Source: an uncultured Gemmatimonadales bacterium (GTDB taxonomy: Bacteria; Gemmatimonadota; Gemmatimonadetes; Palauibacterales; Palauibacteraceae). Taken from it: DNA of 64,000 nt. Positions 7,193 to 55,301 of this stretch are shown here, one piece after another. Where the stretch lies: positions 32,001 through 96,000 of the forward strand of contig CAWANJ010000007.1 in the NCBI GenBank assembly GCA_963783385.1. Reading direction: 5' to 3'. The notes under the pieces were generated by a model. The model was not told where the DNA came from, searched no databases, and worked only from the letters and a program-made list of their open reading frames with translations. Position 1 is the first letter of the stretch; each line of letters opens with the position of its first letter. Both the position numbers and the translations under genes were made by a program.

Positions 7193-7251
7193 GATGTCAA
7201 GGAATGGCGAAGGAGTGTCAGTCTTTGGCATTTCTTGACAATCCTTGCCAT
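7193..7251 (+). repeat. Phased TGNCA palindromic element, copy 1
   Basis: GATGTCAAGGAATGGCGAAGGAGTGTCAGTCTTTGGCATTTCTTGACAATCCTTGCCAT; motifs at 7195, 7205, 7216, 7226, 7236, 7246. Confidence 0.85.
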
Positions 7252-7343
7252 CGCCGCGCGAAGATCCCCCGCTGCCCGTGTCCTTCCGCAGGAGGCTGCA
7301 CGCGCTTTCCCGTCCGCCGTGCGTGTCCTATTCTCCTCGTCCC

Positions 7344-8366
7344 ATGACCAGCGTGAAGAAGGCTCTCATCACCGGGATCACGGGCCAGGACGGCTCCTAT
7401 CTGGCCGAGCTCCTCCTCGAGAAGGGGTACGAGGTGCACGGCATGGTGCGCCGCTCCTCGACGGAGAAGTTCGACCGGATCGCGCACATCAAGGACCGCG
7501 TCGAGCTCCACCAGGCCGACCTCCTGGACCAGCTCTCCATCCTGGAGATGCTGGACGAGGTGCGGCCGCACGAGGTCTACAACCTGGCGGCGCAGAGCTT
7601 CGTCCCGACCTCGTGGCGCCAGCCCCTCCTCACCGGGGAGTTCACGGCCCTGGGGGTGACCCGGATGCTGGAGGCGCTGCGCAGCGTGGACCCCGGCATC
7701 CGCTTCTACCAGGCCTCCTCCTCCGAGATGTTCGGGAACGTGCGCGAGAGCCCGCAGAACGAGGAGACCCCGTTCTATCCCCGGAGCCCGTACGGGGTGG
7801 CCAAGGTGTACGGCCACTTCATCACGGTGAACTACCGGGAGAGCTACGACCTGTTCGCGGTCTCGGGCATCCTGTTCAATCACGAGAGCCCGCGGCGCGG
7901 GCTGGAGTTCGTGACCCGCAAGGTGTCGGACGGGGTGGCCCGGATCGCGCTGGGGCTGGAGGAGGAGCTCCGGCTGGGCAACCTGGCCGCCGAGCGCGAC
8001 TGGGGCTTCGCCGGCGACTACGTCGAGGCCATGTGGCGCATGCTGCAGCGGGAGGAGCCCGCCGACTTCGTGGTGGGGACGGGCCAGAGCCACTCGGTGC
8101 GCCAGCTGGTGGAGGCCGCGTTCGGGGCCGTGGACGTCGAGCTCCAGTGGGAGGGAGAAGGGGTCGAGGAGCGCGGCCTGGACGCCGCCACCGGCGCGGT
8201 GCGCGTGGTCGTGGACCCCGAGTTCTTCCGCCCGGCCGAGGTGGACCACCTGGTGGCCGACGCCAACCGGGCCCGGAGTGACCTGGCGTGGTCGCCCGAC
8301 GTCTCCTTCACGCAGCTCGTGGAGATGATGGTGAAGGCGGACCTGCGGCGGCTGCGGGACTCGTAG
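7344..8366 (+). CDS. gmd: GDP-mannose 4,6-dehydratase
   Basis: [49 protein letters not shown]. Confidence 0.97.
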
Positions 8367-8814
8367 ACCCCCCGAGACACGGACGGCCGATTCCCGCTGG
8401 TTTCCGACGCGATTTGCCCGCTTTATGGCATTTCGGGATGGGGCCGGCGGAGGCTTCGGGGCGTCGGCCCCCGAGAACACGGGCCACCGGCCGGACCGAG
8501 GCCCTCGGCGCGCGGGCAAGGTCCTTGCCCTAAGGGAGTAGACCGATCCCGACGCGGACTGTTGTACAGGAGCGACGACAGGGCTATTATGGGTCGTCCT
8601 GCCAGTCCGCCGTACACACGGCAATCGATATGCGATCACAGTTCGGAGCACAGGCCCCCCCGGGCCGGGCATCCGGCGGACGGGGGACGCCTTCCAGGAC
8701 GCTCGGTTCCCGGCTACAGCATCCACCGGCATCAATGTCGGTCTGGGCGTGCCAGCCCGGACGGACCGGCGTGATGGCCGTGCGCACCCAGTTGAAGCCA
8801 GCGAGGTCTCGACG

Positions 8815-53064: not shown

Positions 53065-55202
53065 GGGGCGCCCGGGCGGTCCTGGCGGTCGCGGCACTCC
53101 TCGCGCTCCTGGCCGGGGCCTGCCGTCCCGCCGCATCGCCCTCCTCTCCGTCGTCCCTCTCCGGCGACTGGGACTGGTACCGGACCATGGGCGCCACGCC
53201 CACGGGCGGCTGGGAGGGCCGACGCCGCTTCGCCTTCGCCCACTTCGAGGGCCCCGAGGCGGCCGGTGCGTGGCTGAAGCGCCGCTCGGGCGAGACCATG
53301 GAGACGATCGACTCGGTGGCGGTCACCGGGGACTCGGTGGTCCTCGACTTCGCCCCGGAGGCGGGTGGGGAGACGGCGACCTTCCGCGGCGCCTGGACGC
53401 CCGCCGGCGCGGCGAGCGGCGCCGAGACGGACACCCTCGCCGGCTTCCTGTACCGGGGCGGGACGCCGACCGAGCGCGTGTGGTTCGTGCGGCGCTCCTC
53501 GCCGGCCGACTTCGAGCCCCCCATCCGGCTGTGGCCGGGGCCCCTGTCGGACTCGACCTACGACGTGACGATCGACCCGGCCGTCCCCATGCACGCCCGC
53601 GACGGGACGCTCCTCATGAGCTTCGTAGGCCGGCCGGTGGGGAAGGGCCCGTTCGGCGTCGTCATGGAGCGGACCCCGTACCTGCGCTGGGACACGGCGG
53701 CGGCCACCTTCTGGGCGTCGCGCGGCTACATCTACGTGAAGCAGGACGTCCGGGGGCGGGGCGGCTCGGGCGGAGTCCTCGACATGAACGACATGCAGAT
53801 GGAGGACGGCTACGACGCGGTCGAGTGGGCCGCCCGGCTGCCGGGCTCCAACGGCAGGGTCGGCATGGTCGGCCGCTCCAACCCCGGCCTGTACGCGTGG
53901 TACGCCGCCATCGCCGCTCCCCCGCACCTGGCCGCCATCGCGCCCCAGGTGGCCACGGCCGATCCCGTCCGTCTCGTTCCCTACATCGACATGGTGTTCT
54001 CGCCCACGATCGTCCCGTGGCTGTGCCTGACGAAGGTGAAGGACAGGCTGTCGGACATGAGCGACGTGGCCGAGGTGAAGGCGTTCCGGCACCTGCCGGT
54101 CATCGACGCCGACACCCTGGCCGGCTGCCCGCGCCGCCAGTTCTGGCTGGACTGGTTCGACCACCAGAGCCAGGACGCCTACTGGAAGCGGCTCGGGGTC
54201 GAGAACCACCTGGACCGTGTGAAGGTGCCCGTGCTGGGCATCGCCGGCTGGCACGATGACGCGCGCGGCACGATCCGGAACTACACGGTGATGAGCCATC
54301 ATCCGCACCACCCCTTCCTCCGGGTCGTGATGGACGCCGGCGCGCACAAGGGGATCGACTACGTGCACGGTCACTTCGGCCCGCGCGCCCGCATCCAGCC
54401 GCGCCTCCTGCAGCTGCGCTGGTTCGACCACTACCTGAAGGGGATCGACAACGGCGTGGACCGGGAGCCACCGCTCGACTTCTTCCTCATGGGGCCCAAC
54501 GTGTGGACGAAGGAGGAGGCGTGGCCGCTGGCGCGAACGAGGTGGACGCCCTTCTACCTGCACTCGGGCGGGAACGCCAACACCTCGGCGGGGGATGGGA
54601 CCCTGGACACGGTCCCGCCGCGACCCGGTGCGGGAGCGGGCGCCGCGGCCGACACCTTCACCTACGATCCGGGCGATCCCACCCCGTACCTGGTCGACGC
54701 GCGCGAGCTGGAGCTGTCGCTCAACGAGGACTACGCGGCCGTCGAGCGCCGACGCCGCGACATGCTCGTGTTCACCACGGCGCCTCTGCGGGACTCGCTC
54801 CGCATCGAGGGCCCGATGACCGCCACCCTGTGGGCGGCCACGGACCGGAGGGACACGGACTGGCACGTCATGATCCTGGACGTCCACCCGGACGGGAAGG
54901 CCATGCGGATCCAGGACGGCATCGTGCGGGCCCGGTTCCGGAACGGCTTCGACCGGCCCGAGCTCCTCACGCCGGGAAGGGTCGAGAAGTACGAGATCAA
55001 TGTGTGGTTCACGGCGATGGTGCTGCCGCCGGGACACCGGCTGCGGGTGACGGTGGAGTCGGCCGCGTTCCCGAAGTATGACCGGAACCTCAACACCGGC
55101 GGCGACAACGAGCGGGATACGACCTACGTGTCCGCCCACCAGCGCGTCCTGCACGACGCCGCGCACCCCTCGCACGTGACGTTGCCGGTGATCCCCGGGT
55201 GA
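53061..55202 (+). CDS. CocE/NonD (S15) family hydrolase, lipoprotein
   Basis: Lipobox LLAGAC; RTPY, QDVRGRGGS, DGYDAVEW, GRSNPG, GWHD; C-terminal PepX-like domain (FPKYDRNLNTG). Confidence 0.9.
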   Translation: MRGARAVLAVAALLALLAGACRPAASPSSPSSLSGDWDWYRTMGATPTGGWEGRRRFAFAHFEGPEAAGAWLKRRSGETMETIDSVAVTGDSVVLDFAPEAGGETATFRGAWTPAGAASGAETDTLAGFLYRGGTPTERVWFVRRSSPADFEPPIRLWPGPLSDSTYDVTIDPAVPMHARDGTLLMSFVGRPVGKGPFGVVMERTPYLRWDTAAATFWASRGYIYVKQDVRGRGGSGGVLDMNDMQMEDGYDAVEWAARLPGSNGRVGMVGRSNPGLYAWYAAIAAPPHLAAIAPQVATADPVRLVPYIDMVFSPTIVPWLCLTKVKDRLSDMSDVAEVKAFRHLPVIDADTLAGCPRRQFWLDWFDHQSQDAYWKRLGVENHLDRVKVPVLGIAGWHDDARGTIRNYTVMSHHPHHPFLRVVMDAGAHKGIDYVHGHFGPRARIQPRLLQLRWFDHYLKGIDNGVDREPPLDFFLMGPNVWTKEEAWPLARTRWTPFYLHSGGNANTSAGDGTLDTVPPRPGAGAGAAADTFTYDPGDPTPYLVDARELELSLNEDYAAVERRRRDMLVFTTAPLRDSLRIEGPMTATLWAATDRRDTDWHVMILDVHPDGKAMRIQDGIVRARFRNGFDRPELLTPGRVEKYEINVWFTAMVLPPGHRLRVTVESAAFPKYDRNLNTGGDNERDTTYVSAHQRVLHDAAHPSHVTLPVIPG

Positions 55203-55243
55203 GAGGGGCGGTAGAGAGGGGAGGCACCCTCTTTCGGGCACCA

Positions 55244-55301
55244 ATGGCCAGGATTGTCAGAGAATGTCCAACTTTGTCATTCCTTGACAAGGATGGACAT
55301 C
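55244..55301 (-). repeat. Phased TGNCA palindromic element, copy 5 (inverted relative to copies 1-4)
   Basis: Minus strand GATGTCCATCCTTGTCAAGGAATGACAAAGTTGGACATTCTCTGACAATCCTGGCCAT; motifs at 55245 to 55295 every 10 bp. Confidence 0.88.

Follow-up and report, generated by a model that had tools for sequence, protein, structure and literature searches.

In Vibrio cholerae, the ribbon-helix-helix (RHH) antitoxin ParD2 binds DNA as dimers whose beta-sheets enter one major groove after the next along the same face of the DNA; a single box is not bound, and ParD2 alone forms larger oligomers (PMC10776004). PrpA, a PF03693 protein of the Pseudoalteromonas rubra plasmid pMBL6842, binds repeats outside its own promoter, namely the plasmid iterons (PMC7848731), and the RHH protein ParG cooperatively coats parH of plasmid TP228, an array of ~100 bp with short degenerate boxes and AT-rich spacers (PMC3130281). 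ArtA of pSK41, an RHH regulator without a toxin, recognizes TGACA at several scattered promoters, where the motif overlies -35 elements (PMC2777438), and solo antitoxins have been proposed, from genome counts, as regulators of other operons (PMC2701414). Here we analyze an element that occurs five times in a 64,000-nucleotide stretch of DNA (the window) from an uncultured Gemmatimonadales bacterium of sediment (Palauibacteraceae; GenBank assembly GCA_963783385.1, contig CAWANJ010000007.1, positions 32,001 to 96,000 of the forward strand) and that carries six TGNCA boxes at a 10-bp pitch. It is likely that the core of this element is an operator of the ParD type (PF03693/TIGR02606), and on balance we lean toward the element as a whole being an enlarged form of such an operator, read by a lineage-specific fusion of an RHH domain with a minimal nucleotidyltransferase (MNT)-like domain and copied to six solo sites.

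Results

The element and its copies

The five cores that the initial annotation had placed in the window were all recovered, each with an ATG...CAT span of 57-58 bp, and its description of six TGNCA boxes per core at a 10-bp pitch, with a single 11-bp step in copy 1, was borne out, as was the low GC content of the cores (39-45% in the five, against 72% for the window). By hand count, 21 of the 30 boxes in these cores are exact and 9 have one mismatch. Every core is also flanked by homologous arms of ~25-35 bp, which had gone unnoticed in the initial annotation, giving a whole element of ~125 bp. The arms are mutually imperfect reverse complements, and a profile of the element therefore matches both strands; the two arms score 11.1-11.4 against each other, compared with 8.2 +/- 1.7 when random intergenic DNA is used, and the outer ends are not sharp. 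Mean column identity over nine element sequences is 63%, and box number and phase are kept although the copies are divergent. The element thus combines short near-palindromic boxes at one-turn pitch, as in ParD (PF03693/TIGR02606) operators, with the array of short boxes and AT-rich spacers seen in type Ib (parH-like) plasmid centromeres. The helically phased protein-binding array on one DNA face that the initial annotation had proposed is supported, with a ParD-family RHH fusion adjoining one copy as the candidate protein.

The source assembly (G000; 3.54 Mb, nine contigs including C1, C3 and C9, 92% complete) was scanned for six boxes with at least 20 of the 24 fixed bases matching, at pitches of 6-15, in the real and the reversed sequence. 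Pitch 10 gave 16 overlapping positions, equal to six loci, while pitches 6-9 and 11-15 gave zero matches, as did the reversed genome; six-box arrays are therefore not due to chance. In the tabulation of box units the second box of copy 1 is registered one base out of phase, which leaves the other tests unaffected. A profile search of the whole assembly found seven copies (E <= 5e-24; the next match has E 4.5), which overturns the expectation of hundreds per genome and adds two copies to the window's five, one on C1 and one on C3. Five of the seven lie within 48.2 kb, an arrangement reached in 0 of 200,000 random placements. A three-box site at C3:377167 overlaps a gene start.

An RHH-MNT-like fusion gene adjoins the C3 copy

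The C3 copy (G000:C3:370680-370815) has seven boxes, is preceded by seven tRNA genes and runs straight into the open frame of the RHH-MNT-like gene directly behind it (G000:C3:370800-371390). In both G000 and its sister species (G003), the C3-type copy abuts this gene, and a DNA-binding gene co-distributed with the arrays, in the same two genomes, is now at hand. In G003 (L144:1500-1575), where the array has six boxes, a reading frame crosses the entire array without a stop and continues into the RHH gene, and the database start calls of P0001/P0002 fall inside the array; the seven-box copy of G000 breaks that frame.

The N-terminal part of the fusion is a ParD-family RHH domain (TIGR02606, E 9.7e-13, above the cut-off; PF03693) and the single TIGR02606 match in G000. 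Close PDB matches to it include ParD chains of the 7ycv/7ycs type, entries that we take to be PrpA. The RHH domain is followed by a proline-rich linker and a C-terminal domain for which no Pfam match was found. The model of the latter (predicted local distance difference test, pLDDT, 77) is nearest to minimal nucleotidyltransferases (1wot, Z 8.8, rmsd 3.4, 83 aligned; 5yep, Z 8.0; 8xeh, Z 7.5), and an Atlas structure search agrees on the MNT fold (TM ~0.62); Foldseek alone returned nothing at E <= 0.001 for this model. As modeled, the domain has a Pol-beta minimal nucleotidyltransferase-like fold. The catalytic motif of MNT proteins is GS...DxD, and conserved GS and DxD columns are absent from an alignment of five homologues. 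The full-length model is of low confidence (pLDDT 52) and its structure search was uninformative. Between G000 and G003, mismatches at codon positions 1/2/3 number 2/3/18 in the RHH domain and 24/24/41 in the C-terminal domain, and on these counts the fusion gene is under purifying selection.

No ParE, HEPN or ParA ATPase gene was found beside the fusion, whose neighbors are the seven tRNA genes on one side and, next to it, a convergent GIY-YIG (UvrC-like) gene. The only PF05016 match in G000 is on C9, beside another small gene, and its three PF01934 (HEPN) matches are all on C1. Because there is no toxin gene, the element is not part of a parDE module, and because there is no ATPase gene, it is not part of a partition system. 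Elsewhere in G000, the three HEPN genes (G000:C1:741000-779000), two with identical scores, lie near a DDE transposase gene, and two other toxin-antitoxin-like pairs are present at G000:C9:30400-31000 and C9:981100-981750; these comprise an addiction-module gene with a seemingly frameshifted ParE-like gene and a CopG-like RHH gene with a PIN-like gene, neither pair having a phased array.

TGNCA box pairs precede other ParD-family genes

A search of 251 genomes gave 36 TIGR02606 matches, 30 of them with loci, and exclusion of the weakest (L191) and of G000's own left 28, for which the 90 bp upstream were scored for TGNCA-N5-TGNCA with at most one mismatch. Such a pair lies upstream of 22 of these 28 other genes of the phylum and is exact in 14; among 1563 control regions the frequency is 1.2%, with 0 exact pairs, and the expectation from shuffled sequence is 0.67. 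Exact pairs peak at 10 bp, with pitch 10 in 14 cases and pitch 9 in 1. Three loci chosen by DNA alone adjoin parD-like genes on their upstream side: one in G051 (three boxes), L078 (Hyphomonadaceae, five boxes) and L035 (Deltaproteobacteria, four boxes), the latter two both before parD-parE-like pairs and representing 2 of the 88 loci of a GTDB scan. The likeness of spacers between the arrays and parD operators was judged by inspection only. The survey yields TGNCA boxes at a 10-bp pitch as a predicted operator for a subgroup of ParD antitoxins.

Distribution among relatives

With a profile built from nine copies, arrays were found in G000 (7) and G003 (3) only, of 61 genomes, the best outsider being G051 (E 0.034). 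The full-length fusion is likewise confined to G000 and G003 among 145 genomes of the order, for which a cluster listing gives the name Candidatus Palauibacterales, and its homologues number 4 among 5.8 billion proteins and 4 at E <= 1e-10 among 50%-representatives. A congener (G001, 92% complete) has neither arrays nor fusion and carries unrelated genes at the same tRNA-adjacent site. The four-box pattern occurs in 1 other genome of 400 in the phylum, at a single site (L025:1500-1536, G402) just upstream of a probable gene start and with no RHH gene of ParD type beside it. Of the 12 loci from a metagenome scan, 11 were orthologous sites in the species of G000 and G003, and 1 was weak and probably due to chance; viral contigs gave 13 four-box matches, all AT-rich or simple tandems, with 0 six-box matches and no relative of the fusion. 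Many of the 88 GTDB loci are simple 5-bp tandems and none has arms (best 36.6 bits), and no RNA dataset containing the element was listed among 20 runs. An intergenic stretch of a Bacteroidales genome (L104:2250-2950) is packed with several types of short tandem repeat, including a 10-bp phased one.

Gene context of the copies

The five window copies lie in a surface-polysaccharide/lipopolysaccharide (LPS) gene region (3976-62927). Copy 1 (7161-7287, plus strand; core 7194-7251) occupies the divergent gap between a GYD-domain gene (minus) and a GDP-mannose 4,6-dehydratase gene (plus), at the start of the polysaccharide cluster, and copy 3 (41593-41714, plus; core 41624-41680) the divergent gap between an lptF-type gene and a GT9 heptosyltransferase gene. 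The other three are between convergent genes: copy 2 (28616-28741, plus; core 28649-28705) between GNVR/Wzz-type and CitMHS transporter genes, copy 4 (48924-49048, plus; core 48956-49012) between GT87 and M1-peptidase genes, and copy 5 (55208-55332, minus; core 55244-55300) between PepX-type peptidase and Kdo/WaaP kinase genes. Outside the window, the C1 copy (G000:C1:33296-33422) is upstream of a satD-type gene, and together these make up the six solo copies of the seven. All cores are intergenic apart from overlaps with gene ends; the GT87 reading frame extends into copy 4, and the stop codon of the Kdo/WaaP kinase gene is inside an arm of copy 5.

The short GYD-domain gene adjoining copy 1 (6801-7040) is apparently without a start and is absent at the matching place of G003. 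Between the satD-type gene and the C1 copy is an AT-rich stretch of repeated short palindromic motifs (G000:C1:33200-33290 and L147:1360-1480), kept in G000 and G003 and possibly a second operator. Window positions 51500-52700, before the PepX-type gene, hold no confident gene and show many substitutions and single-base indels among conspecific contigs, which suggests a variable or decaying stretch.

Gain, loss and origin of the copies

The sister species keeps copy 3 (1 change in 57 core bases), the C1 copy and the C3 copy. At copy 4 it lacks ~150 bp including the element, and at copy 2 it has both arms, joined at a 4-bp direct repeat, with the core absent; sites 1 and 5 are rearranged in G003 (synteny breaks) or at contig ends. 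We read the missing copy 2 core and copy 4 element as probable losses in G003, since site 2 still has its arms and the sequence to the left of copy 4 is common to G000 and G001; insertion is the alternative. Copy 3 is not in G001, where much the same gene order around copies 3-5 is found with no arrays. Contigs of the same species from four studies span copies 3-5; all three copies are bridged in three runs and, among the pieces shown, copy 5 in one run. No joints at the elements were listed in these contigs from four runs, in which rare variants are dropped.

The 22 bases that immediately follow the core in copies 3, 4 and 5 match the fusion gene of G003 in its 5' region (p <= 0.001); the C1 copy matches it at p 0.014, and copies 1 and 2 are not significant. 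The matching stretch encodes E-D-P, which is also the start of the distant homologue P0004. From the 22-base match and this shared start we infer that the solo copies came from the promoter module of the fusion gene; no gene remnant was found beside them. Comparison of orthologous arrays shows changes at 11 of 50 spacer positions but at 3 of 48 fixed box bases (hand count; Fisher p 0.041), and the sole length change is of exactly 10 bp. With the gene-linked copy included in the count, the excess of spacer over box change is a weak sign of selection. The solo copies may still function as docking sites, or they may be remnants in decay.

Discussion

If the element is an enlarged ParD-type operator, each near-palindromic TGNCA box would accommodate the beta-ribbon of one RHH dimer, and six dimers at a 10-bp pitch would stack cooperatively on one helix face. 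The reader would be the product of the single ParD-family gene of G000, behind the C3 copy, in which the linker and an MNT-like domain lacking conserved catalytic residues would replace the usual toxin-binding tail. The solo copies, derived from the promoter module of this gene and with one arm still matching its 5' region, would serve as scattered docking sites of high avidity. Five of these lie across the polysaccharide/LPS region, where the bound protein could repress the divergent promoters at copies 1 and 3, block transcription at the convergent ends (copies 2, 4 and 5) or loop the region. Binding and cooperativity are predictions for the RHH fusion drawn from sequence, as is any effect of the arrays on polysaccharide genes. 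Whether the solo copies also do a job is, in our judgment, evenly balanced. Doubtful, and put forward as a speculation, is a fuller scenario of a domesticated toxin-antitoxin autorepressor, its ParD-type RHH domain joined to a catalytically dead nucleotidyltransferase fold, whose operator was lengthened and copied as a unit through the polysaccharide region, with six-dimer filaments bridging or silencing it as a centromere-like scaffold.

Several observations weigh against the operator reading and its named partner. Only one of the seven copies is beside the RHH gene: the C3 copy is directly upstream of it, and the five window copies and the C1 copy are not. Three copies lie between convergent genes, where there is no obvious promoter for a repressor, and in the C3 copy itself a scan found -35-like hexamers with no full sigma-70-type promoter. 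The co-occurrence of arrays and fusion concerns two sister species and thus one event; G003 is without the copy 2 core and the copy 4 element, and the kept gene order of G001 is without arrays, so that the arrays are dispensable. When the G000 gene is taken as reference for the 5' match, only copy 3 is significant, and copies 1 and 2 match neither reference. The 28 ParD genes are related (approximately three subfamilies) and do not amount to 28 independent cases. The strict box pair is also not family-wide: it precedes 2 of the 10 plasmid parD genes that were fetched, out of 54 records, and 1 of 7 additional genes. A relaxed TRNYA pair, defined post hoc, is exact before 4 of the 10 plasmid genes against 0.18 in shuffles. 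Finally, an alphaproteobacterium (G514) has ~14 dispersed loci with at least four similar boxes at a 10-bp pitch, in one orientation and in a different 200-bp context, with no TIGR02606 match in its genome; ParD is thus not a necessary companion of phased arrays, and the case for the named partner is correspondingly weaker.

These same arrays bear on the improbable alternative that the elements bind another protein, for instance a response regulator or nucleoid protein, and that their link to the ParD-like gene arose by coincidence from a single insertion. It would fit G514, and six loci from alphaproteobacteria fit the core model no worse than parD-linked ones do, with no ParD-type RHH gene in the fetched flanks; G515 has one such locus and no TIGR02606 match, and G516 three loci and one match. 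Against coincidence are the adjacency in two species, the matching presence and absence, and the same motif and pitch before most ParD genes of the phylum. The alphaproteobacterial loci hint at a wider class of phased arrays. They form a separate element of ~200 bp in soil alphaproteobacteria (G514: L049, L068, L096, L112, L280, L285, L286; G515: L278; G516: L279, L283), in which a run of four to six boxes at a 10-bp pitch, all in the same orientation, precedes a conserved AT-rich motif along with inverted boxes, and one copy is beside an mgsA/rarA gene.

A less doubtful competitor, though still an unlikely one, keeps the origin that we favor and drops the host function: the copies would be a non-autonomous mobile or copied unit resembling a miniature inverted-repeat transposable element (MITE) or a repetitive extragenic palindromic (REP) sequence, or the leftover of RHH gene insertions from which the gene was lost; it would have spread locally, in a region given to gene exchange, and be decaying now, with any binding incidental. 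Inverted arms that score above background in all copies, the strong local clustering, the way copies hug gene 3' ends and overlap stop codons, the lack of two copies in G003 and the narrow distribution all speak for it. It sits poorly with copies that differ as much as these do (63% identity) and yet keep box number and phase, with the lack of a clear target duplication or sharp outer end, and with conspecific contigs that bridge copies 3-5 with no joint listed. The core of copy 2 is bounded by a 4-bp direct repeat, and since its arms remain in G003, this fits deletion equally. Instead of the many near-identical copies of a MITE or insertion sequence end there are seven divergent ones, no mobilizing enzyme was identified, and one DDE (PF01609) and one Y1 (PF01797) family, the transposase families searched, place no element near their loci; no evidence was found for the recombinase or transposase ends listed among the candidates of the initial annotation. 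REP or bacterial interspersed mosaic elements with their tyrosine transposase (RAYT) were rejected on the copy number, on a single weak Y1 match without an element in its locus and on the lack of an arm-only hairpin family, and repeats of the kind that accompany four-helix-bundle or GxxExxY genes on the absence of both families, and of DUF559, from the 92% complete G000.

Two further explanations have far less in their favor. A structured RNA or bidirectional terminator, in which the near-palindrome forms a long hairpin, is very improbable: folding z-scores of -1.4 to -4.3 in the seven copies, three copies at convergent gene ends and arms of the gene-linked G003 copy that are able to pair over the start region would suit it, but the structures differ among copies, folding follows from the palindromic boxes alone, and Rfam gave no match (0 in the window at the gathering threshold). 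Pairing of a left arm is no stronger with the right arm of the same copy than with those of other copies (permutation p 0.79), and this lack of arm covariation within copies argues against RNA structure despite the folding scores. A role as recombination sites, with inversion or excision of blocks within the polysaccharide region, is hardly credible. Copies 1 and 2 do flank a 21-kb synthesis cluster in the same orientation, and in G003 synteny breaks or contig ends fall at sites 1 and 5, but there is no recombinase beside any copy, the copies are too divergent, G001 has the same order around copies 3-5 without arrays, and four runs show no joints at those copies, in contigs that hide rare variants.

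On the reading as an enlarged ParD-type operator, the element would offer a testable case of the birth of a regulon from a toxin-antitoxin module by copying of a whole operator rather than by base changes site by site, a route otherwise hard to see; its scope is two uncultured sister species. If the domesticated-repressor reading is true, the alphaproteobacterial arrays would be a second case of an unrecognized class of chromosomal RHH docking elements. A literature search, with most subscription papers outside it, found neither dispersed solo parD operators nor an RHH-MNT fusion described.

Among described systems, the V. cholerae ParD2 operator is similar in that its RHH antitoxin belongs to this family (7b22 matches the RHH domain of the fusion at E 0.0038) and that short imperfect palindromes seat adjacent dimers, with a 4-bp box and a 6-bp gap giving a 10-bp pitch (PMC10776004). 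As presented there, parDE2 has three GGTA boxes, one promoter and the ParE toxin, whereas here the TGNCA boxes number six or seven per array, the arms are inverted, six copies are solo and the fusion has no toxin gene next to it. PrpA differs in its plasmid origin, its other motif and its intact toxin, and the parts of the source available describe no dispersed chromosomal arrays (PMC7848731). Like TP228 parH, the element is an array of short boxes with AT-rich spacers, and a related array doubles as an operator in that system; parH, however, belongs to plasmid partition with a ParA ATPase and has tetramer boxes in the portion available (PMC3130281), while the fusion has no ParA gene beside it and is found on chromosomal contigs. 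ArtA, from an unrelated sequence family, binds mostly as a single dimer and without six-box arrays in the sections available (PMC2777438). The C-terminal domain of the fusion, as modeled, shares the fold of the MNT antitoxins of HEPN-MNT systems (1wot, 5yep, 8xeh), from which the fusion differs in the lack of conserved catalytic GS/DxD residues, in having no adjacent HEPN gene and in its fused ParD-type RHH domain. Set beside these systems, the size of the array, the six solo copies and the fused partner are new.

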